Of a DNA stretch of 64,000 nt, positions 25,533-55,643 are shown piece after piece. The DNA is taken from contig CASDOS010000023.1 in assembly GCA_949282205.1 (NCBI GenBank), positions 2,023-66,022 of the forward strand, given 5' to 3'. This DNA comes from an uncultured Alphaproteobacteria bacterium. Its GTDB lineage: Bacteria > Pseudomonadota > Alphaproteobacteria > RF32 > CAG-239. Below the pieces are notes generated by a model. The model ran no database searches, had not been told where the DNA came from, and saw only the letters and a list, made by a program, of their open reading frames with translations. Each line of letters starts with the position of its first letter. Position 1 is the stretch's first letter. The position numbers were made by a program, and so were the translations under genes.

Positions 25533-28490
25533 TTACCAACCGCCAAGCGCTTTATCGAAATCGACATTTTTCAAGTTCTGCGGCAAGACCAGCCCATAAG
25601 GATGCCTTTGAGTAAACAGCACGGAGAGCGGCGGATAAAAATGTTGATAACGTTTCAACCAATATAATGCCTCATGTGGATATTTCGACACATCGACAGC
25701 AAAAACCTTCACCCCATCTCTTTTCAATTTATCCACCACCTCGAGATTAAACAAAGAGCGCGGAGAGTAAGGAGCGCCGAGAGTAACCAAAACCGGCTGC
25801 GACAAAGGACGATTATTCACATACTGAATTGAATCCGCCTCGGTATAGTTTAAAGGCTTTGGATATATCGGCGACAAAGCGAATAAAATTCCCCCCGCAA
25901 GCAAAATAAAGCAAGTCAACAAGAAGAGCCAATGTTGTTGCACTTTAAAGAAGATTTGCGCTTGCACCAAAGCAGAGCGAGAATGTTTAATAGCCTCGCC
26001 GACGGCACGAGGGAACCAATACCACAAAGCGGCTATCAAAACCAAGAAGGTCGCCATAACCACCAGAGCGGCAAACGAATAAACCGCCCCGCAAATCCAC
26101 AACAACCAACCGAGCAGCAACGCGGTATAAAACAGATTCACCCTCTGACACAATAAAAGGAAATAAGGTGTACGCGGCACCCACAACAGAGCCATAAGCG
26201 GCAAGAGCATCATACCAACCCAAATCAATCCCCCCGCTCCCAAGCGATAGGAAAAAGAGAGCATATCGGCGTTTCTGCCCAAGAGATCAAGGACTTCGGA
26301 TTTATAGGGCATCGGCACGAACACAAACAGCACCGCCACGAACAGAGCGGAACAAACGCCGTATTTCAAGAATCGCCGCAACGGTCGAAACAGAGCAAAA
26401 TCGACATAACCGAGATTTTCCATAATCAAAGCAACGCAAAGCGCTCCAACCGCCGTTAAGATAGGGGCGGACAAATAGACCTGTGGCAAGAGGAGATATT
26501 CTGCGCCCCAAATCAATCCCCCCGTTCCGAGAGCCGTCATAAACGCAAAACGCGCCAAAATCCACCAGCGTTCATTTTTCGTCCACAACAACGCCATCAA
26601 ATTAAAATAGACGGCAAAAATCGCCGGCATCAAACTGATGAGCACTCCAAACACGAAGAACATCCAAACATCGAAACGTTTTTGGCTCTCGACGGTACTG
26701 AAAGCATCCACCGAGCGAGGTTGCATTACCGCCCGCAAAAATTCTTGATTATCAAATGATGCGCTGACAGCAACTTCGGGTAAAGGAGCACGTCCGTCAA
26801 CTGCCACCGAAGGTGTAGATGAAGATGAAGATGAAGGTGTAGATGTAGATGAAGACGCAACCACCCCGCCTTTGACCGTCGAAGGTATAGAGGTTGGTGA
26901 AGAAGATATATCCCGCCGAGCAAACGAGTTATTGGATGATTTCAAATCAAACACAGCCTTTCCGCGCCATTTACCGCCGCTATGAAACATTTCATAACGC
27001 GGATTAATAAAGTTAGAGCCATAAGCATCCTCAACCATCACCGCCATATTACTGACATCAATAGTCCCCTCAAAAAGGACGGTAAGCTGTTTTTTATCAG
27101 CACTATAAAGCGCGTCAGTAACTTTAACATGTTTACTTTTCGCCGAGGGAAGTTTCATAAATCCCTGAGTGATATAATTAACAAAGATAGACGATTCGGC
27201 GGGTGTTCCCTGTCGCAAGGTTAATTCGTGATAAGAAACAATGGGTTTACAATCGCCGTTAGCGGCGCAAAGCACAAAACGCAACGCTCCGGAAACACGC
27301 ATGGATTTAGAGGTATCCGCACGTTCAAATTCAATCGGTATGCGCACGCGCCCGCTCAACACGCGGTGTACTTGTTGATTTTTATCTTGGATACCGTCGG
27401 CCAAAGGCTGATAAATTTGATATGCGCCGACGTTCTGACTGGGACGATAAACTTCGCCTTTATCGGTTTCGAATTTAGTTTCGGAGAGTAAGAATCCAAG
27501 TTTATTTTTTGGGTTAAGCACATCACCGTTAATATAAAATCCCTTAGGAAGCAATATATCAAAGACGGCGTGAATTTTCTTTTGATCACCCAAAAGCGAG
27601 CTATCGGCGAGCAATCTGATTTCACCTTTATCGTCAAAAGTCTGAAAAACTTCGCCGGCGCCGTCGGTAGAAGCGGGAATTTTCTGCCACGCCTTAGCAA
27701 AAGCACCCACATCAAATTTCAAGAGAGCCAATAAGATTTCGGCATAAGTAACCTCATCGGTGGTAACATAATTTTTATCCATACGCCGCACGGGTTCGCC
27801 ATATTGTCCCGCATCATATTCAAGAAATTTATAGGGTTTATAACGAATCAAATATTCCCCCTCTGCGGATTGTTTGGTAAGATCGACTTCCGAAGGAGCG
27901 TATTCACCGTCTTGAGCGACAATCGGCGCGTCTTTCGGAAGCATTTTAGCGGCTTTAATTTCGTGTTCCAAGCGTTTGACGACATAATCATATTTCCGTT
28001 TCCACCGCACAAAGAAGCGAATGGTATCGGCAAATTTCCGCACGGTACTTTCTTGGGCATTCGGATAAAAAAGCAGAATAAGTCCGGACAAATCCCCGTT
28101 AATTTTATCTCCCTGATAAACTTTATCAGCCACAAAGGGCAAGAAGAACAATTTAGCGATTTCATTATGAATATGTTGCGCCGTTGTTTCGGGTTTTATT
28201 TGCGCCTGTGCTGTATCAGCTTGCGTCAGGGCTGTATCTGTTTGCGGCAGAGGCGTATCTGTTTGCGTCAGAGGCGTATCTGTTTGCGTCAGAGGCGTAT
28301 CAACGATTTTATCAACAACCTCGTCATGAGCATTGCGAGTAAGATTGTTTGCTTTGCGTTCAAATACCTCGCTGTCAGAGATTTCGCCAACAACCTTATC
28401 AGCCCCCGTTACGATTTGCGCCCGCGATGCAGAAACAAAGAGGTTGAAAAGCAACAAAGCGCATCCTATATAACAAATAAAACTCTTCAT
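25533..28490 (-). CDS. DsbD/ScsB-like membrane protein with degenerate redox motifs
   Basis: It has a signal peptide and DTPLTQT repeats. The DsbD-alpha-like domain retains the C-x5-C pair (LCAANGDC). After an S/T-rich linker comes a polytopic domain with LISLMPAIF where DsbD-family proteins have LMPCV. The C-terminal thioredoxin-like domain has YSPRS in place of WCxxC. Confidence 0.6.
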   Translation of the reverse strand: MKSFICYIGCALLLFNLFVSASRAQIVTGADKVVGEISDSEVFERKANNLTRNAHDEVVDKIVDTPLTQTDTPLTQTDTPLPQTDTALTQADTAQAQIKPETTAQHIHNEIAKLFFLPFVADKVYQGDKINGDLSGLILLFYPNAQESTVRKFADTIRFFVRWKRKYDYVVKRLEHEIKAAKMLPKDAPIVAQDGEYAPSEVDLTKQSAEGEYLIRYKPYKFLEYDAGQYGEPVRRMDKNYVTTDEVTYAEILLALLKFDVGAFAKAWQKIPASTDGAGEVFQTFDDKGEIRLLADSSLLGDQKKIHAVFDILLPKGFYINGDVLNPKNKLGFLLSETKFETDKGEVYRPSQNVGAYQIYQPLADGIQDKNQQVHRVLSGRVRIPIEFERADTSKSMRVSGALRFVLCAANGDCKPIVSYHELTLRQGTPAESSIFVNYITQGFMKLPSAKSKHVKVTDALYSADKKQLTVLFEGTIDVSNMAVMVEDAYGSNFINPRYEMFHSGGKWRGKAVFDLKSSNNSFARRDISSSPTSIPSTVKGGVVASSSTSTPSSSSSSTPSVAVDGRAPLPEVAVSASFDNQEFLRAVMQPRSVDAFSTVESQKRFDVWMFFVFGVLISLMPAIFAVYFNLMALLWTKNERWWILARFAFMTALGTGGLIWGAEYLLLPQVYLSAPILTAVGALCVALIMENLGYVDFALFRPLRRFLKYGVCSALFVAVLFVFVPMPYKSEVLDLLGRNADMLSFSYRLGAGGLIWVGMMLLPLMALLWVPRTPYFLLLCQRVNLFYTALLLGWLLWICGAVYSFAALVVMATFLVLIAALWYWFPRAVGEAIKHSRSALVQAQIFFKVQQHWLFLLTCFILLAGGILFALSPIYPKPLNYTEADSIQYVNNRPLSQPVLVTLGAPYSPRSLFNLEVVDKLKRDGVKVFAVDVSKYPHEALYWLKRYQHFYPPLSVLFTQRHPYGLVLPQNLKNVDFDKALGGW

Positions 28491-28593
28491 AAAATTTTAG
28501 GTTGATTTAAAGATAAAATTAAGATATGCCTAAGATAATAATATCAGGTCAGACAAAAAGCAACAAACTTTTTAAGGAAAGACACATATAAAA

Positions 28594-29277
28594 ATGAGAA
28601 AAAAAACCGATATGTTCGACTACGATGAGCTATTCAGCGAGAAGTTGCCGCAACCGCGCCGTAAAAAGAGCGCTCGAAAGAAAAGACGTTCATATATGCA
28701 AGAGGAAGAAGATACGAACACATTAGTCGGAAAATGCCTTGTATATATCGGTCAAGACGGAAACGACACCTACAATCAAGCAGTGATATACATAACCGAG
28801 TGTTCGCCGGAACGAGTAAAAGGGATTATGATAAACAAGTTATTGTTCGGGAGTGCAGTGGTTGAGTGTCACAGCAAAGAGGACGGAGTGGAAAAAGAAA
28901 CACGAGGCGTGTATGAAGATTTATACCAAGGGGGGCCTGTCAATCCTGCGAACGGTTTTGTATTATTTCCGAGCAAAGGGAGTTTTTACAGTGATCCGCA
29001 CGCGGAGATACACGGCGATATAGCGATATCGAGTTCGTTTGGCGTATTGCAAGACATTTTAGACGGAGAAGGACCGGAAAAGAAGATAATAGCGATGGGT
29101 CACTGTGTATGGAACCGCGGCGAATTGGAATGGGAAATATTCAACAATCGTTGGTTAATTGTGGAAGGCAACAGCAAATTGATTTTCGATACCAAATTTG
29201 AAGACAGGTGGGAGCAAGCCAAATTAGCCAGTGGATTAAACCTCGGCAGTTATATTCCGCATATCGGCTTAGCCTAA
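28594..29277 (+). CDS. YqgE/AlgH-family protein with a basic N-terminal extension
   Basis: The core LVGKCLVYIGQDGNDTYNQAVIYITECSPERVKGIMINK and the segment GHCVWNRGELEWEI resemble the UPF0301/AlgH family. Confidence 0.65.
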   Translation: MRKKTDMFDYDELFSEKLPQPRRKKSARKKRRSYMQEEEDTNTLVGKCLVYIGQDGNDTYNQAVIYITECSPERVKGIMINKLLFGSAVVECHSKEDGVEKETRGVYEDLYQGGPVNPANGFVLFPSKGSFYSDPHAEIHGDIAISSSFGVLQDILDGEGPEKKIIAMGHCVWNRGELEWEIFNNRWLIVEGNSKLIFDTKFEDRWEQAKLASGLNLGSYIPHIGLA

Positions 29278-29851
29278 AAGAACATCACCACCGCCTACAC
29301 CAACTTTGCCAAGTCAATGGCAATACATTGCCAGCAGGCACGGCAAGAAGGAGAAAAGTGGGTTATTTAAGGATATAAGCGCGCTTTTCGAGCAATGATA
29401 TATAGCAGAACAGAGCAAGTTCAAGCATTAGGCAATAAAGATAGCCGCTTTGCGCTCTCCGCACGCGTATAAGCAAAACGACGATATTGTTTTAAGACAT
29501 TCTATGGCGATTCGCCGTATTCATTGGATTGGGAGCAAAGTTTGCCGATGTTACTAAATTGCCCCTTGCGCCGGAAGTTCGAAAAGAAGCAATAACGCAA
29601 CTATCCTCACGTCATGAGGAAGAGCATCGGGATTTTCTGAGCATGGAAGATTTGGCAAGCTCACGGAATTAAAAAACGACTTGGTCGAAAATTGGCGTAA
29701 GCTGTTTGAATAAGAAAATCTACATCAAATCAAAACAATCCCCTACTCCGTATAGCCGTTAAGGTCATAAAAAAGAGCGGAGGATTTTTTTATGCACGAA
29801 AAGAAAAAAGGCTTGCGTTTTAAAGATTAAACTGTTAAAGAGAAATACATT

Positions 29852-29927
<76 letters not shown>

Positions 29928-30039
29928 GAATAAGAAAGAACCGACAAAACGAAGGTCTAGGAGAAACAATAAGAGAAATCCCTTCGCCGCGTCGGTTCTT
30001 TTTTTTAATCGTATGCCGTTAGTTTCAGTCTGAAAAATT

Positions 30040-31089
30040 TTAACTATAATCCCCAAGCGGTTTCCAATACGTTTGATACTCGCCGTTAACCAGATATTTA
30101 AGAATAAAATTATCCAAATCAATCGTTCCTCTCCAATAATACGAAGACGACGTACCGATGGTAAAAGTTTCACCGCCGACAAAAACATCTTGATTCATAG
30201 AAATTTGTTCAGTCCAACCGTCAGCAGGCAACGAAGACAAGCTATATCCGTCATCATCTAAAGTATAGAGTGTCGATATATACCCAGTATCATACGATTG
30301 CACCACTTTAACCCAATACGTTTTAGAAGTTTCGACAGTTCCGCCGACATATCTTGATGCCCCGTCATACAAACACCAGGACGTGCCGTATGTTCCAAAG
30401 TATCTGTTACTACCGACACTTCTGACAATCTGCTTATACGAAGACAACGAATCGGGCGTAGTAACCTTAACAATGCACTCATAACCGGATATGGAAGTTC
30501 CGACATCTGAACTGCCATAAGACACGGCAAAAAACTTTTTATCTGCGGTCAAATACGTTCCCGTCTTAGAAAAAGCAACCAAATGACCGTCAAACGAAGG
30601 ATTCCCGCTAATAGTAAAGTTACACCGATTAGCATTATTAAAAAATCCCATATTTCCCAATTCACCCTGCCATAAGAAGACATAGTCGCTCAAAACATCA
30701 CCATCAATAAAATTAACATCACCTGAAGTATAATTATACATCAACGAAGCCTTCATTGTACCATGAATATTATCCGTAGAAACATTAACAACATCATAGC
30801 TGGAAATAACACCTTTATAAATAGTTCCGTCATACAAATATAAATCACCGTAATTACCGAAATAGCCGACACTTCCATTATATTCACTGCCATTAGGCAA
30901 TATACCTGCATTAATCAGCACAAGCGGATAAGAAAAACTAACCGTAATACCGTTATAAGGCACGAGAGTCACATTTGAAACCGTATCTTCATAAATGACG
31001 GTTGAGAGATAATAATCATAAAATTTCGCAGTTGTAGCCTTAACAAAAAAAGGCTGTCCTTTATAAACTTTTTTAGTAAATGTATTCAT
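30040..31089 (-). CDS. Tyr/Asn/Ser/Thr/Gly-rich protein, unknown function (tail-fibre or lectin-like composition)
   Basis: This is a 349-aa ORF. GGAGG lies 6 nt upstream of the ATG, and the ATGA overlaps the stop of the upstream gene. There is no signal peptide and the coding sequence is AT-rich. Confidence 0.7.
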   Translation of the reverse strand: MNTFTKKVYKGQPFFVKATTAKFYDYYLSTVIYEDTVSNVTLVPYNGITVSFSYPLVLINAGILPNGSEYNGSVGYFGNYGDLYLYDGTIYKGVISSYDVVNVSTDNIHGTMKASLMYNYTSGDVNFIDGDVLSDYVFLWQGELGNMGFFNNANRCNFTISGNPSFDGHLVAFSKTGTYLTADKKFFAVSYGSSDVGTSISGYECIVKVTTPDSLSSYKQIVRSVGSNRYFGTYGTSWCLYDGASRYVGGTVETSKTYWVKVVQSYDTGYISTLYTLDDDGYSLSSLPADGWTEQISMNQDVFVGGETFTIGTSSSYYWRGTIDLDNFILKYLVNGEYQTYWKPLGDYS

Positions 31090-32438
31090 TGCACACCTCC
31101 ACTCAATTCAAAAGTTTCAACATCAGGAGTAAAAGAAATAGAAAAAGTAAGCACTTCAGGTAAGGCGGTACGAATTTCTGCGCGTCCCAATCCATCGGTT
31201 TTCCCTGTACAATAACCGGTAAGCGAATAAGCATTAACCTGCGCATAATTTTCTGCATACCATTCATCATCATCAGGTGTCGTCAATTTCAACACATTAA
31301 ATTTTCCGGAAGAAACAGAGGTTTGAGCTTGAATAGCAATAGTTGTTCTATCATCTGAAACGCTAAAATTATAGCTTCCCTCATAAGGAACAATTAAATT
31401 AGTTTTATCAAAATCCAAGGTTTGCAAAACAAAAGTTGTCCCATCAAATACAAACATATAAAAATCCGCATCATTAGAGATATACAATCTTTTAGTTCTT
31501 TTATCATAACGAACCAGACACGGTTTATCGATAAGATTATGCAAATCGGTCGGCAAATCCTGAGCAATCACCACACCGTCATTGGTAATTTTATAAATAA
31601 TCAAGTTATACCTTTTATTCCAAGAATCATCAATAACACTGGAAGTTGTAATCAAATAATCGCCATTATCGATACCTGTAAAATATTTAATAGTCGGCTG
31701 AGTGATATAAGGTTCCACGCGAGGATATTTCCCCAAAGGTGTCAAAAGGAGCCAATCAGTTTTATTCCAACAGATTTCTGTTTTTCTAAATCGCACCTCA
31801 TTATCAATTTCACTTTTAGTAATAAATAAAAACTCATTATCATTATCGAGCAAAACCGTATAAATATTTTCCTGATATTCAGAAAAATTAAACGAGATAT
31901 GAGGTCTTGAAGTATTTATTCTATCCACCACTTCAAAAACATAATCGGTATCAGTTTTTTTAAACGCCCACTGTTCGGACAATACAATTTCATCCTCATA
32001 AGTTTTAACCGTAAAATTACCATCGACGGTAGCCGAAGCCATAGATTTGACGGCCGTATTATTAATATAAAAGCCATAATAACAATTTTCCGCCTCAATA
32101 AAATTATTATAGGCCACAAGATTATTTAAGACACTAGGCGTAACAGAAACTGTATTTAAGGTCCAAGTTTTATCATCATTATCGTATAAAGCGTAAAAAG
32201 CGGTTGCAGCACGACTAAGTGCCAAAAAATTATTATTCGCATTAAAAAAAAGCGCAAATCCACTAATATAAGAAGAATATCCGCCACTTATCCAACTGGA
32301 TTCCAAATCAGTATTATTATGTTTATTAAGCCATACCTTTTGCTGCGCCAGAATATCGCCGCCGGTATTATTAACGGCATAAACAACATCACCTTTTGCG
32401 TCATTTGAGGTATTAGTAGCATTCGTCAAGCCCTTCAT
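31086..32438 (-). CDS. Asn/Tyr/Thr-rich protein, unknown function
   Basis: This is a long ORF. I prefer the ATG at 32438 (MKGLTNATNT), which has GGGAGA 7 nt upstream, over the GTG at 32465. It is co-oriented with and coupled to 30040..31089. Confidence 0.7.
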   Translation of the reverse strand: MKGLTNATNTSNDAKGDVVYAVNNTGGDILAQQKVWLNKHNNTDLESSWISGGYSSYISGFALFFNANNNFLALSRAATAFYALYDNDDKTWTLNTVSVTPSVLNNLVAYNNFIEAENCYYGFYINNTAVKSMASATVDGNFTVKTYEDEIVLSEQWAFKKTDTDYVFEVVDRINTSRPHISFNFSEYQENIYTVLLDNDNEFLFITKSEIDNEVRFRKTEICWNKTDWLLLTPLGKYPRVEPYITQPTIKYFTGIDNGDYLITTSSVIDDSWNKRYNLIIYKITNDGVVIAQDLPTDLHNLIDKPCLVRYDKRTKRLYISNDADFYMFVFDGTTFVLQTLDFDKTNLIVPYEGSYNFSVSDDRTTIAIQAQTSVSSGKFNVLKLTTPDDDEWYAENYAQVNAYSLTGYCTGKTDGLGRAEIRTALPEVLTFSISFTPDVETFELSGGVQ

Positions 32439-32801
32439 CACAAATCTCCCAACAAAAAAAGACACCCGATCTAAGGTGTCCGATTAATTTCCAAACAAAG
32501 AAACCACCAAAAGTTTCTCCGCGATACAAAAAGAGCCTGTAGGCCACGAAGTCACAGGCAAAACAAAAACGGATTTGCACAAACAAAACCGCCATTATAG
32601 AGAAGAGATAACACACCCCCGACAGGATGTCAATAGATTTGGCAACAGTAAAAAAAATATTTTTTTCGCCCAAATTTATCCCATAACAATTCCGCAAAGA
32701 GAAGATAGAGATAGAGAGAGCGAAAGCAAAACACTTCACAATACACACATAAACAGAAGATAAGAGGCAAAAAAAGCTACCCGAGGCGAAAAGGATATCT
32801 T

Positions 32802-32839
32802 AAACAAAAAAAGATACCCGAAGCATCCCGAGTATCTTT
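32802..32839 (-). terminator. intrinsic terminator downstream of the 22/23-bp repeat array
   Basis: On the minus strand an 8-bp stem aaagatac/gtatcttt with a 14-nt loop is followed by tttttgttt. Confidence 0.6.
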
Positions 32840-33018
32840 CAGCGAACTTCATCTCTCCGCCGGCACACACCAAACAGAGAAAAGATTGCTTTTTCTTCTG
32901 ACTCCGCCCGCCTAAATTCCGCCGACCAACATCAGCAGAAAATTCTCATTTCACCCCACAGCTCAGACAAATAAAAAGCCCGCTGCAGCGCCACAACACC
33001 AAACCAAGAAACCGTCCA

Positions 33019-33463
33019 CACCCAGCAACAATTCTCAACACACCCAGCAACTATTCTCGACACACTCGCAACAATTCTCCGCCACACCCAGCAACAATTC
33101 TCCGCCACACTCGCAACAATTCTCCGCCACACCCAGCAACAATTCTCAACACACCCAGCACCAATTCTCAACACACCCAGCACCAATTCTCAACACACCC
33201 AGCACCAATTCTCAACACACCCAGCACCAATTCTCCGCCACACCCAGCAACAATTCTCCGCCACACCCAGCACCAATTCTCCGCCACACCCAGCACCAAT
33301 TCTCAACACACCCAACAACTATTCTCGACACACTCGCAACAATTCTCCGCCACACCCAGCACCAATTCTCAACACACCCAACAACTATTCTCGACACACT
33401 CGCAACAATTCTCCGCCACACCCAGCACCAATTCTCAACACACCCAGCAACAATTCTCCGCCA
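33019..33463. repeat. tandem array of 20 units of 22-23 bp
   Basis: The units are head-to-tail with no spacers. The variants are cacccagca[a/c]caattctcaaca, cacccagca[a/c]caattctccgcca, caccca[a/g]caactattctcgaca and cactcgcaacaattctccgcca. A 66-bp higher-order block (units 13-15) repeats as units 16-18. Confidence 0.95.
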
Positions 33464-33490
33464 CATCCGCAAACATAATTATCTTTGCTT

Positions 33491-34090
33491 TTACAATTGT
33501 TTCAATCGTAAAATCAAACCATTATACTCCGCCACGAAATCAAATTCCTCCTGAGAAATATCTTTTCCGATAATCGCATCACGTTCACTTTTAAGAATAT
33601 CGACCTGTCCGTGGATAGAATACGGCAATCGCCCCTCATCAACCTCAGCGCTTAAGAAAGCAATAGTTTCGTCCAAGCGAACAATTCTGTCATAAACATC
33701 ATACATTTCAAAGAGTTTCTGTGTTCTGACCAAAAACGCCGACGGGTCCCAATTCATACGATTAAGTTGTTGTTTAAGATAAGGAGGGCATTTCCCGGGA
33801 AACGGTCCGTTCACAAAATCAATCAACTGGGAAGAAGCCTTAGGCATTTTCAAAAGTTCCTGAGCCGTCAAAAGGAGGTGCATAAATTCGGTTTCATCAA
33901 ATGTTTTTGAAATTCTGGTAATAAGGAATCTGGGAGATTGTTCTTGTATAACCTTTCGTTGCATCACCACATTACCGACAACCAAATAAAGAAAAAAGCT
34001 CAAAGCCACCGCATACAGAATCGGTTTAAGCAATTTCCGTTTCACAACTCTAAAAAACTTTTTCCTTCTGGTAATCTTCGTCATCAGCAA
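33491..34090 (-). CDS. N-terminally membrane-anchored protein, unknown function
   Basis: This 199-aa ORF has a basic N-terminus, one TM segment (ILYAVALSFFLYLVVGNVV) and a soluble domain. Confidence 0.55.
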   Translation of the reverse strand: MLMTKITRRKKFFRVVKRKLLKPILYAVALSFFLYLVVGNVVMQRKVIQEQSPRFLITRISKTFDETEFMHLLLTAQELLKMPKASSQLIDFVNGPFPGKCPPYLKQQLNRMNWDPSAFLVRTQKLFEMYDVYDRIVRLDETIAFLSAEVDEGRLPYSIHGQVDILKSERDAIIGKDISQEEFDFVAEYNGLILRLKQL

Positions 34091-34221
34091 AATTCCCTGT
34101 TAGATTCGAAAACATCTTACGGTAAAAAAATAAAATATGCAATAAAAAATAAATACAACCTTCGCGATAGCAATCAAGTGGAACAAAAAGAAAATCAAAC
34201 ATTTACCAACTCCGCCATGCA

Positions 34222-34923
34222 TTAAACAAGTTCACGACGAAAGCCCTGAGCAACCACATAAGTTTCCGGAGATTTTTCACGACTGGCATCGGGTTTATAA
34301 TGAGAAACCTTGGCAAAACATTTCTTCATATCAGCCAGAAGTTCGCCCTCAGCGCCCCCTTGAAAGACCTTAGCGATAAAGATACCGCCTTCGTTCAAGA
34401 CGGTTTTGGCAAATTCGTAGGCACCCTCAACCAGAGCGATAGTGCGTAAGTGGTCGGTTTGTTGATGACCGGTCGTATTAGCGGCCATATCGCTCATCAC
34501 GACATCAGCGCGAGCGCCGTTCAAGAGTTCCAACAATTTCGCATCGGCATCGGGTTCTGTAAAATCCTGACAAACAAAGGTAGCGCCATCAAGCGGTTCG
34601 GTCGGCAAGATATCCAAACCGACAAGTTTACCAGTACCTTTAAGTTTAAGAGCGGCGATTTGCGACCAACCGCCGGGAGCGCAACCGAGGTCGACAATAA
34701 CTTTATTTTTGCCCAAGAATTTATATTTTTCATCCAGCTGAATAAGTTTGAACGCCGCGCGAGAACGATATCCCTGCCGTTTAGCCTCCGCCACATAAGG
34801 GTCATTCAGTTGCCGTTCCAACCAGCGATTGGAAGAAGAGGTATGATACTTTGCCTCTTTAAGTTTAACGGTAAGCATTTTGCGCCCCCGAACTTCCTTA
34901 GCCGATTTCGTTAATTTAGCCAT
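34222..34923 (-). CDS. rlmE: 23S rRNA (uridine-2'-O)-methyltransferase RlmE/FtsJ
   Basis: It carries SSSNRWLERQLNDPYV, the SAM motif VVDLGCAPGGWSQ, and VMSDMA. Confidence 0.92.
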   Translation of the reverse strand: MAKLTKSAKEVRGRKMLTVKLKEAKYHTSSSNRWLERQLNDPYVAEAKRQGYRSRAAFKLIQLDEKYKFLGKNKVIVDLGCAPGGWSQIAALKLKGTGKLVGLDILPTEPLDGATFVCQDFTEPDADAKLLELLNGARADVVMSDMAANTTGHQQTDHLRTIALVEGAYEFAKTVLNEGGIFIAKVFQGGAEGELLADMKKCFAKVSHYKPDASREKSPETYVVAQGFRRELV

Positions 34924-35102
34924 TTATTTGCTCCAAGCCGTTTCAATAAAAAATTACCTTTCTGTATAGCGACAAACACATCTCAGCCATGCCGGATAGG
35001 ATGGCTGAAAGCATTGCCTTGGTTGTTCATGTATAGTGACAAACACATCTCAGCCATACAGGATAAAATAACCTAACGTTTTTAAAAAGTCACGCATTAA
35101 TT

Positions 35103-36059
35103 TTACGCAGCCAATTCGGCCACAATCGCCTCCTGAGCGCTTTTAAGCGAAGCGGTCATTTTCTTTTGTTTAAGCGCGCGATAAATTGTTCTGAAGATGA
35201 CGCAAGCGGCGACAAAGATAGGTGCGCGGTTCGGACCGATATAGGGCGATTCGGAGCGTTCTTTCAAATCAAGTTTCAAGATTTGGTCAATAGTATCATC
35301 AACAACATCGAGAGGTACGGTAACCCCATCGGAAGCAAACTTATCATATTTAGGGTGTTTATTAATCCAAGACACCAAGCGCAAGGGCATGGAAGAAGTA
35401 GCGATAAGCGCCGCATTATCAAGATAATCAAACGCTTGAATTTTCTGCAAAAACGGGGTCAAGTATTCCAAAACTTTCTGTTCCAATGCATATGCGCCAT
35501 TATCGTTATATTCGAACAGGTTAAACATTTCAGAGGAGTTACGAGCGCCCAAAGGGACGGAAACGGTCGCCAAGATTTCGGGATTATCGGAATTCGTAGC
35601 AAGAGTAACCTCGGTAGAACCGCCTCCTAAATCATAAACGAGCAAATATTTTTTATCATGAGGAGCATTTAATTTTGCGCCCAAGAGGGTTAAGCGCGCC
35701 TCTTCAAATTCGCTGATAACATCAATATCGATACCGGAAGCCTGTTTAACATCGTGAACAAAATCTTTGGTATTAGAGCTCATACGGCAAGCGGCGGTAG
35801 CGATAGCGCGGTATTTTTTCACATTATAGAGTTTCATCATTTCGGAAAAATCCATAAATGAGCAGATAGCGCGTTCCATCGCCTGCGGGCAGAAGCAATG
35901 ATTTTCGGCCAATTTTTCGCCCAAAGCCACATGTCTGACATCACGATAGACAGGTTCGCCCTTATCATCAACAATCAGCAAGCGATTAGAATTCGTCCCC
36001 AAATCCATAGCCGCGAAATAAGTTTTTCCATCTATTTTTTCATCTTTAAGATCAGCCAT
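35103..36059 (-). CDS. Ppx/GppA-family phosphatase (short form)
   Basis: It carries AAMDLGTNSNRLL and DLGGGSTE, the ASKHA-fold motifs of Ppx/GppA. I prefer the ATG at 36059, which is preceded by GGAGG. Confidence 0.8.
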   Translation of the reverse strand: MADLKDEKIDGKTYFAAMDLGTNSNRLLIVDDKGEPVYRDVRHVALGEKLAENHCFCPQAMERAICSFMDFSEMMKLYNVKKYRAIATAACRMSSNTKDFVHDVKQASGIDIDVISEFEEARLTLLGAKLNAPHDKKYLLVYDLGGGSTEVTLATNSDNPEILATVSVPLGARNSSEMFNLFEYNDNGAYALEQKVLEYLTPFLQKIQAFDYLDNAALIATSSMPLRLVSWINKHPKYDKFASDGVTVPLDVVDDTIDQILKLDLKERSESPYIGPNRAPIFVAACVIFRTIYRALKQKKMTASLKSAQEAIVAELAA

Positions 36060-36340
36060 AAATCCTCCGCACAACGCCAAAAAAACAAATTTTTACAATC
36101 TTATACCATTAAATTTTACAAAACAACCTCAACTTTTCTTTTATACACCATCTCGACACAAGTGCCCCCCTTTTGCCGAGCTCGAGGAAATACCCGCAAC
36201 CAAGACCAAGCCCAAGGCTTTAACACCCCAAAATACAAACTACACAAATTCAGAGTGCTCAAATTCAGAGTGCTCAAGTGCCCCCCCCTTTTGCCGAGCT
36301 CGAGGAAGCGCCCTAAACAAGCCAACGTATATTTGATAAG

Positions 36341-37660
36341 CTATTGCATCACCGTTTTTTGTGAACGAAACGCATTGTTTTTATGCGCCCGTCGATCAAA
36401 AGGAAACCGACCACCCCTGCGATTCTTTTTATGATGATGCGAAGCGTTAGATTTTGGGGCATGCATCAAGTCGAGCAAAATACCTTCGCGAATACCACGA
36501 TCGGCGACGGTAATTTCGGAAATCGGCCAAAACGACATAAGTGCTTCAATAATAGCACACCCAGCGACGGTCAAATCGGATTTGGATTGCCCGATACAAG
36601 GATGTTTGCAACGCCCTTCGACGCCCATGGTTTTAATTTTGTTAATTGTAAAATCGATATCAGGAGCAGAAATAGCGATACCATCCACGGCAGAACGGTT
36701 ATAGCGAGGCAGTTTCAAGTGCACGGCGCCGATAACGGTGACGGTTCCGGAAGTTCCGATAACTTGAATTTCCTGATTAGCAATAGCCTGATAGATTTGG
36801 TGTTTTTCCTCAAATTCCTGCAAAATCGCCTGCGTACGTTCGACCACGGTAGAATATTCGAGCGTACTCATTTCGTGTCCGGCAAACGCCTCTGAAATAG
36901 TAACCACGCCATAAGGAAGCGAAACAAAACCTTCAATAAAGGTTTTACCATTATCGGTAACGCGCGCCAATGAGATTTGCGTTGAACCGCCACCGATATC
37001 AAACACCAACACTCGTTTAATATTTCGGTTTAAGAGCGGCAGACAGCCGACAACGGAAAGTCTAGCCTCTTCTTTAGAAGAGATAACTTCCAAATCGATA
37101 CCGGCCTCACGTTTAGCCATTTCGACGAATTGAGCGACATTTTTAGCTCTGCGGCAAGCAGCGGTAGCAACAAAGCGGCTGGCGGCAATCGGCATATATT
37201 CATCAATCACGCCGCGACAGATTTTAAGCGCTTGAATAGTACGCCGCATCGCCTTTGAAGACAGTTCATTATCTTGAATAATTCCCTCCCCCAAGCGAAC
37301 GACTTTAGAGAAAGTTTCGACCACACGAAAAGAAGTCGTCGTCGGTGTAGCAACCACCAAACGGCAAGAATTGGTTCCCAAATCGATAGCGGCATAATTA
37401 TTTTGCGTTAAAGTAGGATTTCTATCACCTTTACAAATTTCGCCACGAGATTTATCGTTTAATTTGCTTTTCGTCACACTCTGCAACGCCACGTTAGCAT
37501 TATTCAAAAACACCTTTTCCGCAAATTGAAAGACAGCGCGTTCATCAGCCCCGCCGCGCCCGTCGGTAATTTTAGTATTTTTATCGTTAAACCGACGTTT
37601 TTTCGGTTTACCGGCATTATTTTTATTATCGTTCTCCGGTTGTCCGTTAAATTTAATCAT
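36341..37660 (-). CDS. Ppx/GppA-family phosphatase with basic N- and C-terminal extensions
   Basis: It carries AAIDLGTNSCRLVV and FDIGGGSTQ. There is a basic N-terminal ~80 aa and the tail is HHHKKNRRGGRFPFDRR. Confidence 0.8.
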   Translation of the reverse strand: MIKFNGQPENDNKNNAGKPKKRRFNDKNTKITDGRGGADERAVFQFAEKVFLNNANVALQSVTKSKLNDKSRGEICKGDRNPTLTQNNYAAIDLGTNSCRLVVATPTTTSFRVVETFSKVVRLGEGIIQDNELSSKAMRRTIQALKICRGVIDEYMPIAASRFVATAACRRAKNVAQFVEMAKREAGIDLEVISSKEEARLSVVGCLPLLNRNIKRVLVFDIGGGSTQISLARVTDNGKTFIEGFVSLPYGVVTISEAFAGHEMSTLEYSTVVERTQAILQEFEEKHQIYQAIANQEIQVIGTSGTVTVIGAVHLKLPRYNRSAVDGIAISAPDIDFTINKIKTMGVEGRCKHPCIGQSKSDLTVAGCAIIEALMSFWPISEITVADRGIREGILLDLMHAPKSNASHHHKKNRRGGRFPFDRRAHKNNAFRSQKTVMQ

Positions 37661-37710
37661 TTACACTCCAAGCACCTGCCATGACATTTCGCCGTTGCGA
37701 GTTCAAAGCA

Positions 37711-38823
<1,113 letters not shown>

Positions 38824-40241: not shown

Positions 40242-40673
40242 TTAATCTGAAGCAGAAACAGTCTCATACCATTCATCACCAACAGGACGAGCATTTTCGG
40301 GAGCATCCTCCTCATCCGATGCGGTCTCATACCATGTATCATCAACTGGACAAGCAGTTTCTAGAGTTTCCTCCTCATCCGATGCGGTCTGATACCATGC
40401 ATCATCAACTGGACAAGCAGTTTCTAGAGTTTCCTCCTCATCCGATGCGGTCTGATACCATACATCATCAACAGGATGAGCATTTTCGGGAGTCTCCTTA
40501 GAAGCGCCACTCTGCCCACGTTCGTTTCCGACAAAATTCTTATTATTTCTCTTTTTTCCGGATTTCACCTTAAAGGGTCGGTTAATAGATTCTTCAAATT
40601 CATAAGCAGGATTGTCAAATCCCTTAAAATTTTCCAAACCGTTCAAACCTTCGAAATTTTCAGAATTTTCCAT
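40242..40673 (-). CDS. acidic protein with four ~21-aa Trp-Tyr repeats
   Basis: This is a 143-aa ORF. The repeats read E[TA][LP]E[TN]A[CHR]PV[DG]DxWY[QE]T[AV]S..EE, encoded by ~63-bp tandem units. Confidence 0.6.
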   Translation of the reverse strand: MENSENFEGLNGLENFKGFDNPAYEFEESINRPFKVKSGKKRNNKNFVGNERGQSGASKETPENAHPVDDVWYQTASDEEETLETACPVDDAWYQTASDEEETLETACPVDDTWYETASDEEDAPENARPVGDEWYETVSASD

Positions 40674-46909: not shown

Positions 46910-47118
46910 AAACGTTTCTCCCTGATATTCAGCATATAAAAAGGATATCATAAATTAAAAAATTTAACAACAAGAAATTTCAGCATAAAAGAGATATTGC
47001 GGCATCATAAAAAACATCAAGCCAGCAAGTTTACATCGGAAACTTACCCAATAAGGCAATTACGCATTTACCACAAGCACAATACAATCGGCATTTAAGC
47101 GCCCAATCTCCATCCGAT

Positions 47119-47425
47119 CCCCCTTGGTGAGGAAATAGGAAACGCTCGGCAACAAAAGAGGAGTTGCGATTTTCAATCACACACCGCCCCCACTCCCCCT
47201 TTGGTGAGGAAATAGGAAACGCTCGGCAACAAAGGGGGAGTTGCGATTTTCAATCACGCACCGCCACTACACCCCCTTGGTGAGAAAATAAGAAACGCTC
47301 GGCAACAAAAGAGGAGTTGCGATTTTTAATCACACACCGCCCCCACTCCCCCTTGGTGAGGAAATAGGAAACACTCGGCAACAAAAGAGAAGTTGCGATT
47401 TTTAATCACACACCGCCCCGTCCCT
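47119..47425. repeat. tandem repeat of about 76 bp, 4 copies
   Basis: The unit is cccccttggtgaggaaataggaaacgctcggcaacaaaagaggagttgcgattttcaatcacacaccgcccccact. Copies start at about 47119, 47195, 47272 and 47348. The unit is related to 16848-16905. Confidence 0.9.
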
Positions 47426-53433: not shown

Positions 53434-55638
53434 TTAACGTTCGAATTTGCCCCACCATCGTTTCCAAATTGAAGCAGAAGTTTTCTCTGAAGTGGAAGTT
53501 ATCTCTTCAGAAACTTTAGCTAGCTCCCCTTTCAATTCATCAGAGCGAAGTTTAAGTTGTTGCAGAGCAAAATTTCTTTTCGCTTTAAATTCTTTTAACT
53601 GCTCCTCGTTCATCTGTTCGGTAAAGAGGAGTTTATTGTCTTTCCCGTCAACATCAAAATACTGATTAATCTGCGCTTTATTACGCAACAGCAATGTTTT
53701 TGTATCTTTAAAACCTTCTTTCAAGATATCGTAAATATCAATTTTTTCGCATTCAGACATATCGACAAACGCCGGCATATTATCCACCCGTTCTAAATAA
53801 ACTTTAGCCCCTTTACCAAAATAAACGGCAGACAACTTTTCAAAATCACACAATTCAATCGAAACATCGTCGCAAGGAGAAAAATCCACACACTCCGGCA
53901 GATTAGAGATAGACTTCAATCGCACGTTTGCGCCCTGACGAAATCCCAACCAGCGGAGTTCTTGCATATTGCAATTAACAATTTCGAGTTCTGCGCAGTT
54001 AGAAAAATCCGCTCCATTTTTTAAGTTTTTGACATCAATCAAATGCACCTTAGCCCCGTCCCTAAAGCGAAGTTGAGTTTGCTTCGTCAAGTCACAACTT
54101 TGCATTTCCACCTTTGCGCAGTTGGAGAAATCGACATTTTTTGGGAGATTACGCGTACTCAACATATGGACGACTGCGCCCTCCCCCAAAGAGAGAGAAG
54201 TTACCCCCGCCAAATCGCTTCCGTTAAAATTAACTTCGGCACAGGGAGAAACATCAAGATTTTTCGGCAATAAAGTAACATTGCTCAACACCGCCTCCGC
54301 CCCTTTCATAAACCGAAGGTGCGATTGTTCGCTCAAGTCACAGTAACTCAAATTCACTTCCGCACACTCGGAAAAATCGAGATTCGGCGGTAAATTCTCT
54401 GCCCTTGCCAAAACCACTTTTGCGCCTTTTTTGAAACGAAGATTGGAGAGAGAAGCTAAATCACAACTCGATAAATTAACATCATCGCACTCGGAAAAAT
54501 CGAGATTAGGCGGCAGGTTGTAAGATTTTTCCAATTTAATTTTCGCCCCATTTTTGAAACGGAGGTTCGGCTGATTGCATAAATCACACTCGATAAGATT
54601 AACTTCATCACATTCGGAAAAGTCGATATCGGGCGGCAATTTCTTCACTCTTTTGAGGGTAACTTTTGCTCCTTTTTTGAAGCGTACGTTTTTAAGGTAA
54701 GACAAATCTTCCATATCAAGCTCCACTTGAGAGCATTCCGAAAAATCAACCTCATCGGGAAGTTTCGGTTCAATTCCGCAAAAATGCACCTCTGCATCTT
54801 TTCGAAAGACAATTTTCGCATCTTGTCCAAGAAAACATCTCTTTAAGACCACGCGCCCGAAAGCTGAAAAATCCAAATTTTCCTCCGACAAATCCAAATC
54901 GTGCTCCGAACAAGTGAGCACATTGGGTCGATATTTCCACTCTTTCGTGTATTTCAAATCATAAAACCCGATAATCACACGTTTACAAGCAGTTAAGTCA
55001 ACACGCCTCGGCAAAGGATTAACATCTGTCATCGCAACCGAACCACCTTCTTTAACGATGATTTTGCGAAGTCTTGAGCCGTCACACGCTTCTTTACCAA
55101 AAAAGTTAATAAATTCGCTGTTCGGCGCTTCAATAATCGGCGGCAAAATTTTCTCAGCATGCAAAACACGCCCCAAATGTATCGTATTATCGCTCCAACA
55201 AATCAGACGATCGTATCCGTCAAAATATTCCGTTTCCAAGTGCCCCGTATTTTTTTCAATCGTCAAAATGCGTTCCGGAGCGGAAGATAAATAAGTAGGA
55301 TGTTCGTCATCTTTACGTTGCGGAAGAATAAGGCCATGAGCATCGGCAAAATGACACCCCAAAGTCAACACACTGTGAGGTTGTTCCCGCTTATAAAATG
55401 TCGAGAGCACCACATCTATGAATTGCGCCTGCTCGGTTTTAGGAAGTTCGGCAATACATTGGAGCATATCTTTAATGTTGCGTGCATAGTTGGTAGATTT
55501 AAGAATTTCGAAACAAACCTCAGGGGTAATCTTTTCTTTAGGTTGCCGCACACCTTTGATAACGCGTCCTTTTTTATAGGGAGCAAGGATATTTTCAACG
55601 GCGAGCGGAGATTTAGGATTTACAATATCAACAAACAT
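53434..55638 (-). CDS. MFVDI-family repeat protein (734 aa)
   Basis: Its N-domain is identical over 63 aa to that of 55644..57755. It has canonical repeats such as NLRFKNGAKIKLEKSYNLPPNLDFSECDDVNLSSCDL. The C-terminus is a coiled-coil-like tail ending ..IWKRWWGKFER. Confidence 0.9.
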   Translation of the reverse strand: MFVDIVNPKSPLAVENILAPYKKGRVIKGVRQPKEKITPEVCFEILKSTNYARNIKDMLQCIAELPKTEQAQFIDVVLSTFYKREQPHSVLTLGCHFADAHGLILPQRKDDEHPTYLSSAPERILTIEKNTGHLETEYFDGYDRLICWSDNTIHLGRVLHAEKILPPIIEAPNSEFINFFGKEACDGSRLRKIIVKEGGSVAMTDVNPLPRRVDLTACKRVIIGFYDLKYTKEWKYRPNVLTCSEHDLDLSEENLDFSAFGRVVLKRCFLGQDAKIVFRKDAEVHFCGIEPKLPDEVDFSECSQVELDMEDLSYLKNVRFKKGAKVTLKRVKKLPPDIDFSECDEVNLIECDLCNQPNLRFKNGAKIKLEKSYNLPPNLDFSECDDVNLSSCDLASLSNLRFKKGAKVVLARAENLPPNLDFSECAEVNLSYCDLSEQSHLRFMKGAEAVLSNVTLLPKNLDVSPCAEVNFNGSDLAGVTSLSLGEGAVVHMLSTRNLPKNVDFSNCAKVEMQSCDLTKQTQLRFRDGAKVHLIDVKNLKNGADFSNCAELEIVNCNMQELRWLGFRQGANVRLKSISNLPECVDFSPCDDVSIELCDFEKLSAVYFGKGAKVYLERVDNMPAFVDMSECEKIDIYDILKEGFKDTKTLLLRNKAQINQYFDVDGKDNKLLFTEQMNEEQLKEFKAKRNFALQQLKLRSDELKGELAKVSEEITSTSEKTSASIWKRWWGKFER

Positions 55639-55643
55639 CGAAC

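Follow-up and report, generated by a model that had tools for sequence, protein, structure and literature searches.

A probable hypervariable minisatellite beside a conserved candidate RNA in an uncultured gut alphaproteobacterium

Background

Intergenic tandem repeats of variable copy number are already known, and the small, repeat-rich genomes of some Alphaproteobacteria are textbook cases. The closest described systems are VNTR-105 and VNTR-141 of Wolbachia and the variable-copy tandem repeats of Ehrlichia ruminantium, which are intergenic variable-number tandem repeat (VNTR) loci (Riegler et al. 2012, PMC3287509, citing Collins et al. 2005 PNAS). Stable hairpins beside repeats favour slippage; this has been discussed for both organisms (PMC3287509). 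The locus described here is a tandem array of short units at 33019..33475 (minus strand) of a 64,000-nucleotide stretch of DNA, the window, taken from contig CASDOS010000023.1 (positions 2,023 to 66,022) of an uncultured alphaproteobacterium. The genome is a 59-contig metagenome-assembled genome (MAG), which is 99% complete and has 1.98 Mb and 37.7% G+C. On the minus strand the array lies between the stop codon of a gene for a 199-aa protein (33491..34090) and a structured, conserved RNA element (32799..32954, ~156 nt), which is a new candidate.

The array shares several properties with the Wolbachia and Ehrlichia VNTRs. In each case the repeats are head-to-tail, non-coding and intergenic, the flanks are conserved, and close strains differ in copy number or structure. 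Slipped-strand mispairing near hairpins is proposed for all of them, the hosts have a raised repeat load, and assemblies break at the loci. In contrast to the Wolbachia VNTRs, which have units of 105-141 bp, the unit here is 21-23 bp long and contains no internal hairpin. The setting also differs from that of the Wolbachia and Ehrlichia loci: the host is an uncultured gut bacterium with a genome of ~2 Mb, and the array is placed between a stop codon and a conserved structured RNA.

Three other types of repeat are similar in some respects. The sponge RNAs CsrB, RsmY and RsmZ also carry many short GGA-containing repeats on one strand, followed by an intrinsic terminator. Iterons and centromere-like arrays are likewise tandem direct repeats of ~22 bp, spaced by about two helical turns. 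Marine Beggiatoaceae contain abundant TAACTGA direct repeats for which a post-transcriptional regulatory role has been proposed (PMC4679880). These are short and intergenic like the array; however, they are a single 7-nt motif at 169 genome sites (PMC4679880), whereas the array is a 22-bp unit at a single locus.

The array is most probably (roughly 65%) a hypervariable intergenic minisatellite, or VNTR, which is driven by slippage and recombination, is probably co-transcribed with the upstream gene and has no sequence-specific function.

Structure and uniqueness of the array

The array is real and its repetition is far beyond chance. When the minus strand is split at the invariant hexamer GAGAAT, 20 head-to-tail units are obtained (19 full and one cut), running from 33475 down to 33019. 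Tandem Repeats Finder (TRF) places the array at 33016/17-33458/72 with period 22 (19.9 copies, 86% matches, score 553) or period 66 (6.6 copies, score 633); a third period is 111. The exactly periodic stretch of ~155 bp is as long as a short read, so the copy number on this MAG contig and on others may be a lower bound.

The units follow the minus-strand pattern GAGAAT[T/A]G[G/T]TG[CTGG/CGA/TTGG]GTGTG[TT/GCG/TC], and GAGAAT is kept in all 20. A first-pass annotation, made from the sequence alone, had recognised the 20-unit array but distinguished only four unit variants; there are eight distinct full-length variants, which differ combinatorially at ~5 positions. The higher-order 66-bp periodicity that it described is present locally but does not hold across the array. 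Units 5-7 are an exact copy of units 2-4 (2 x 66 bp), and units 11-14 are four identical 22-mers (4 x 22 bp); such adjacent identical units point to recent duplication.

The two strands differ strongly in composition. The minus strand has 45% G, 33% T, 15% A and 7% C; it contains ten GGA trinucleotides, distributed as expected from the first-pass annotation over about half of the units (10/20), while the plus strand contains none. RNA from the array is unstructured: on the minus strand 91 of 100 shuffles fold at least as well (z = +1.3), and the plus strand gives z = +0.8. The array has no GANTC site.

Within the genome the unit is confined to the array. All 14 occurrences of its 11-mer core CACACCCAGCA in the 1.98 Mb fall there (0.95 expected); no unit variant is matched elsewhere in the genome when up to three mismatches are allowed, and the only BLAST match of the array to its own genome is the array itself. 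A 20-mer from the unit has five matches in Joint Genome Institute (JGI) metagenome contigs. Four of these come from multi-copy sequence of one unrelated assembly and the fifth stands alone; none is in a tandem array, and they were discarded.

The repeats are not coding. The Trp/Cys-rich open reading frames (ORFs) of 84 and 86 aa on the minus strand had been suspected of being repeat artefacts, and this is borne out: the unit length is not a multiple of three, the minus-strand frames hold 3-5 stop codons, and the differences between strains amount to whole units. On the plus strand all frames are free of stop codons, and start codons are lacking as well. A reading of the 66-bp period as 22 codons of a coding array is ruled out by the mixture of 21-, 22- and 23-bp units, by the whole-unit strain differences and by the lack of plus-strand start codons. 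As at other VNTR loci, the array is a head-to-tail series of a single, non-coding unit.

Variation among strains

The strains were compared throughout on metagenome assemblies from short reads, in which tandem repeats can be collapsed or placed in the wrong order. The upstream protein, which public assemblies annotate with 197 aa, is encoded with 100% identity on at least 23 public contigs. In 11 assemblies this protein and the 48 nt after its stop codon are identical, yet four variants of the first unit are found. The number of units also varies: there are 20 in the window, ~10.5 in L064, nine in L023, nine in L024 (in an order unlike that of L023) and four in L025. These absolute counts are soft; differences in the first one or two units beside the unique flank are robust. 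Within the limits of such assemblies, copy number and unit order are thus variable between conserved flanks. The first-pass annotation had named free drift of unit number and sequence among close relatives as an argument against a function, and such drift is what the strains display.

Further rearrangements are seen at the site. In L064 the stop codon and the 48-nt flank are deleted and the coding sequence continues into the array for 17 codons, which extends the protein from 197 to 214 aa (L064:2080-2150). This fusion of gene and array may be a scaffold artefact; if genuine, the deletion indicates that the region tolerates gross change. L023 (4040-4150) and L024 (2170-2280) carry an extra array of five 18-bp units (GCCTCGGRGGGATTTTTT) directly after the terminator of the RNA element, which is absent from the window. 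It is flanked by duplicated GTTT(C/A)AGATATCCTTTT, and its unit resembles the 3' arm and T-run of the terminator when compared by eye, without a score. A CTATCTT run (a microsatellite) is also longer in these two strains than in the window.

Among the conspecific contigs shown, seven out of ten break inside the array, and the array explains why assemblies of this lineage break at this site. As a VNTR it provides a high-resolution strain marker for an uncultured gut alphaproteobacterium.

The orthologous spacer in other species

The array is specific to one lineage at an orthologous site. The sister species G023, in which the upstream protein is 92% identical, has no array and only a single-copy proto-unit, ~TGTTGC(T)GGGTGTG(G/A)CGG(A/G)GA. 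Where the window has GCGGATGTG, then the array, then GACGG, G023 reads GCGGGTGTG followed without a break by ACGGGG (GCGGGTGTGACGGGG). The array unit aligns to this single-copy stretch of the G023 spacer with p = 0.03, and to part of a 43-bp repeat in the spacer of G009 with p <= 0.006.

Other relatives have G-rich repeats of their own. The spacer of G009 contains 2.2 copies of 43 bp, and a further 4.4 copies of 64 bp follow the terminator; L063 has degenerate repeats of ~43 bp, G016 has 2.3 copies of 14 bp, and G023 has 2.2 copies of 46 bp beyond the terminator. No repeats were found in the spacers of G019, L061 and more distant species. The spacer thus appears to be a recurrent site of repeat growth, with different units in each lineage.

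The 46-bp unit of G023 (L003:1127-1228) consists of the 31 nt upstream of the RNA element together with the first 15 nt of the element. It is present once in its native place and in the 2.2 further copies past the terminator, which looks like a duplication of the 5' region that left out the body. Since this repeat contains exactly GAGAATTTTCTGCTG, from the 5' end of the RNA element, the same origin was suspected for the array unit of the window. The likeness is not significant (p = 0.11-0.28) and this origin was rejected.

Position and transcription of the array

The stop codon of the 199-aa gene is at 33491-33493 and the invariant GAGAAT of the first unit begins at 33458, ~30 nt downstream; the array therefore starts shortly after the gene, as first described. 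The unique spacer in between (33476..33490, minus), part of the 48-nt flank which is 100% identical in the 11 assemblies, runs into a degenerate proto-unit (TGTTTGCGGATGTG) at the array edge. On the other side, a spacer at 32955..33018 (minus) separates the array from the RNA element; it contains a decayed unit (GGACGGTTTCTTGGTTTGGTGTTGTGG) and is also seen in L023, L024, L025 and L064. This spacer includes a weak 3-bp hairpin followed by a T-run (GCGCTGCAGCGGGCTTTTTATTT) at ~32975-33000, which is not called by the terminator scan.

The terminator scan finds no convincing terminator between the stop codon of the 199-aa gene and a strong hairpin at 32809-32840. Read-through transcription of the array is consequently plausible and is the default expectation; the array is probably co-transcribed with the 199-aa gene.

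Independent promoters were also considered. One sigma-70-like site (TTGAAA-16-GATAAT, 33505-33478) extends across the stop codon of the 199-aa gene and is a consensus match only. The array itself could be read as a string of sigma-70 promoters (TTGAGA-18-GAGAAT), of which it contains three. This idea was rejected: the region has five promoter-like sites in total, which is not significantly more than in shuffled sequence (2.4 +/- 1.8).

A conserved structured RNA downstream of the array

The first-pass annotation had noted a minus-strand hairpin with a T-run downstream of the array. The terminator scan agrees, giving an intrinsic terminator at 32802..32840 (minus) with a 14-bp stem (32840-32809), a 4-nt loop and a T-run. 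What had been overlooked is that this hairpin is the 3' end of a larger conserved RNA element (32799..32954, minus), which is defined by ortholog alignments, folding and a covariance model. From 5' to 3' the element comprises a stem-loop, a multibranch domain that includes the invariant GGCGGGCGGAGUCAGAAGAAAAAGCAAUCUUUUCUCUG, and the terminator hairpin. The 38-nt block GGCGGGCGGAGUCAGAAGAAAAAGCAAUCUUUUCUCUG is nearly invariant among orthologous spacers; the invariant loop is AAAAGCAA, and the element also has a CUUUUCUCU tract. The fold has a minimum free energy (MFE) of -52.9 kcal/mol and z = -4.36.

The covariance model was built from five species; it detects the element once in each genome for five species of the genus, and also on further metagenome contigs. 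Across ten distinct sequences of the element, 91% of cells are paired, compared with ~50% when the partners are slid. Changes on both sides are seen in 19 of 49 pairs, a number reached in none of 500 shuffles, and four of the pairs changed in this way are in helix 6, the terminator; this covariation was counted on an alignment fitted to the model itself.

Rfam 15 at gathering thresholds has no match to the array or to the RNA element; its only match in the window is a tRNA-Thr. At E <= 10 over 32400-33600 there are two chance-level matches only, which score 13 and 10 bits where the gathering scores are 170 and 440.

The RNA element is kept even in a species with only 66% identity in the neighbouring protein. 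Two more distant species have weak syntenic matches (E ~2-3e-4) which keep GGCGGG..UCAGAAnAAAAGCA and begin immediately past the stop codon of this gene. Beyond the element, G016 has a different gene in convergent orientation; the element is therefore linked to the 199-aa gene rather than to the gene that follows. The ancestral layout would be the gene, a short spacer of 0-100 nt and the RNA element, and the array would be an insertion into this spacer.

In enterobacteria, small RNAs (sRNAs) such as CpxQ, SroC, DapZ and MicL are derived from the 3' untranslated region (3'-UTR) and share the terminator of the upstream mRNA. The RNA element, as opposed to the array, resembles these: it is structured, ~150 nt long, ends in the terminator of the gene and is always found 3' of the same gene. 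Unlike them, it is known from sequence alone, has no relation in Rfam and is found in a few species of one uncultured genus. It is a candidate sRNA, either 3'-UTR-derived or independently transcribed, or a candidate conserved 3'-UTR domain of the 199-aa gene. It is the biologically more valuable part of the locus, as it has covariation support, no Rfam family and a fixed synteny 3' of a genus-specific membrane protein, and it would be new in a clade without any cultured member.

Two minor observations concern the surroundings of the element. Firstly, a GANTC site (GAGTC on the minus strand), the methylation motif of CcrM, is found at 32900-32904 in the invariant core; a gene for a CcrM-like methylase (37711-38814) is located 5 kb upstream. 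Secondly, another nearly invariant block, with AAAATATTTTTTTAACCGTTGCCAAATCTATTGACATCCTGTCGGGGGTGTG..TAT(A/C/G)ATGGCGG, is kept in five species at 32440-32690 (minus), upstream of a 450-aa gene (31086-32438). It is followed by a leader of ~150 nt with two hairpin-plus-T-run sites, the last of which (32481-32460) is just before the ribosome-binding site. The block may represent a promoter that has an operator and an attenuator, or else a further small RNA.

Proposed origin of the array

The minisatellite probably arose as follows. After the split from G023, a short G/T-rich segment of the spacer, immediately downstream of the 199-aa gene, would have been amplified in situ by slipped-strand mispairing and unequal recombination. 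This would have taken place at two scales, 22-bp units and 66-bp triplets, and expansion, contraction and reshuffling would still be under way among strains. The spacer may be prone to repeats owing to its position between a gene and a hairpin-rich RNA element, which would supply slippage-promoting hairpins; in some strains an arm of the terminator itself has apparently been amplified. The array would be carried passively on a read-through transcript that ends at the terminator of the RNA element, and its sequence would not serve as a specific binding site.

Several points weigh against this explanation. The unit counts are taken from short-read metagenome assemblies, in which only differences in the first one or two units are robust. 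Every assembly of this species that reaches the site has the array, which means that the array is fixed in the species. The invariance of GAGAAT in 20/20 units could reflect constraint rather than recent common ancestry. Hypervariability would be compatible with function, by analogy with contingency loci. Lastly, repeats have expanded in this spacer in at least four lineages, which would be expected at a mutational hot spot and also under selection for a long G-rich spacer.

Alternative explanations

An unlikely alternative, although the best placed of those considered, is a contingency-type locus in which mRNA stability, or the yield or processing of the RNA element, would depend on the length of the transcribed array, and strains carrying between 4 and 20 units would show different expression levels. 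The array occupies precisely the interval from the stop codon to a conserved structured RNA, which in more distant species comes immediately after the stop codon, and there is no convincing terminator in between. Spacer repeats have been expanded in several lineages, and the array of this species is fixed yet variable in length. The sense strand is also G-rich and poor in C (7%), and Rho is encoded in the genome; with respect to Rho utilization (rut) sites, a G-rich, C-poor strand would disfavour Rho loading on a long untranslated stretch. On the other hand, the units have no significant likeness to the RNA element, and the relatives G019 and L061 bear the element but no repeats. The abundance of similar arrays in the genome (see below) argues for a mutational cause, and the whole proposal is read off the sequence.

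A more specific form of this idea is less likely again. Here the array would be a transcribed spacer of variable copy number which tunes a ~156-nt RNA released from the 3' end of the 199-aa transcript, with the G-rich sense strand keeping Rho off; several lineages would have acquired such a heritable, strain-level expression dial independently and with different units. Should repeat length indeed modulate the RNA element, the locus would illustrate how repeats can tune expression in nature.

The remaining explanations are minor. One is a multi-site RNA sponge, which the first-pass annotation had raised as a possibility, loosely CsrB-like and for an RNA-binding protein; the transcribed array would titrate an RNA-binding protein (CsrA/RsmA-like or other) or a small RNA by means of GGA or GGAGAA motifs. 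This is very improbable. The ten GGA motifs are all on the transcribed strand, Hfq is encoded in the genome, and CGGAGAA of the unit can pair by eye with UUCUCUG of the RNA element over 7 bp. However, no CsrA is found above cut-off: the best match to PF02599 in this 99%-complete genome scores 18.7 bits, compared with a Pfam cut-off of 27 bits, in a search which detected the E. coli, B. subtilis and T. maritima controls. Unlike CsrB, RsmY and RsmZ, RNA from the array is no more stably folded than shuffled sequence, and its GGA motifs are therefore not exposed in hairpin loops; half of the units lack GGA altogether, and the array has no counterpart in Rfam. The array is also absent from G023, which retains the RNA element, and unit type and number vary freely among strains.

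Slightly less probable still is an antisense insulator. Plus-strand RNA from the array (45% C, 7% G and almost unstructured, with an MFE of only -13.6 kcal/mol over 481 nt) would be a near-ideal loading site for the genome-encoded Rho and would stop antisense transcription from entering the 199-aa gene and rlmE. Spacers between co-directional genes have more G than C on the sense strand in 78% of cases genome-wide, which would agree with such a role. Against it, no promoter on the plus strand was found to point towards the array, the array is missing in the sister species and other relatives, and the proposal is derived purely from composition.

The least probable explanation, raised in the first-pass annotation as an iteron or centromere-like array, is a DNA-level binding array (iteron, centromere-like or datA-like) whose 22-bp sites, two helical turns apart, would bind a replication, partition or titration protein: the 22-23-bp spacing is typical of iterons and the TT-type unit TGTTGAGAA matches seven of nine positions of the DnaA box TGTGGATAA by eye, but the unit occurs nowhere else in the genome, no Rep, ParA or ParB family is found among the ten ORFs scanned (25533-38814), the neighbours are chromosomal housekeeping genes, the monotonic cumulative GC skew indicates neither origin nor terminus, the modelled upstream protein matches no DNA-binding fold, and the array is strain-variable and missing from the sister species.

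The upstream gene and its neighbourhood

The upstream gene encodes 199 aa from a TTG at 34090, as given by the ORF list and its translation, or 197 aa from an ATG at 34084. The protein matches no Pfam family. The gene is found in 21 of 41 relatives searched, all 21 of which belong to this genus, and in none of 16 genomes outside the genus; a scan of a genome collection with the protein returned the sister species only. The protein is thus genus-specific, and it is predicted to have an N-terminal membrane helix and a helical bundle. The AlphaFold model is membrane-anchored and helical, with a predicted local distance difference test (pLDDT) score of 87; it has no fold match in the PDB at E <= 0.001 and provides no functional lead.

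Upstream on the minus strand are the gene for the CcrM-like DNA methylase, two Ppx/GppA genes and rlmE (FtsJ), followed by the 199-aa gene. A Pfam scan of the ten ORFs around the array identifies rlmE, the two ppx/gppA genes, the CcrM-like methylase and an AlgH-like gene. The cumulative GC skew declines monotonically through the window. There is no sign of a plasmid, an origin or a partition locus around the array.

Repeat load of the genome

The genome as a whole is rich in repeats. TRF at basic settings gives 153 rows, which cover 1.22% of bases; the genome of E. coli K-12, which is over twice as large, gives 89 rows and 0.38% (PMC3287509). As 16 of 118 contig ends are in repeats, the true repeat load is higher and repeats limit the assembly.

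Other non-coding arrays with short units are present, among them one of 22 bp x 14.6 (TCAGCCRCCACKCTCGCAATCG) at C53:24177-24498 and one of 16 bp x 24 (ATCRGYCRCTCRCCTC) at C49:1-385. Both of these are G-rich on the sense strand of neighbouring genes, like the array in the window, and have a GCGAG(N)GTGG-like core in common with its GCGAGTGTG units. The first occupies the spacer between two co-directional genes. The excess of G over C in co-directional spacers genome-wide is far less extreme than in the array.

Longer repeats are also present in the window. Large minus-strand genes at 12047-15794 and 54363-56349 contain 123-bp (41-codon) repeats; other repeats are 76 bp x 4 at 47118-47419 and 63 bp x 3.8 at 40261-40498.

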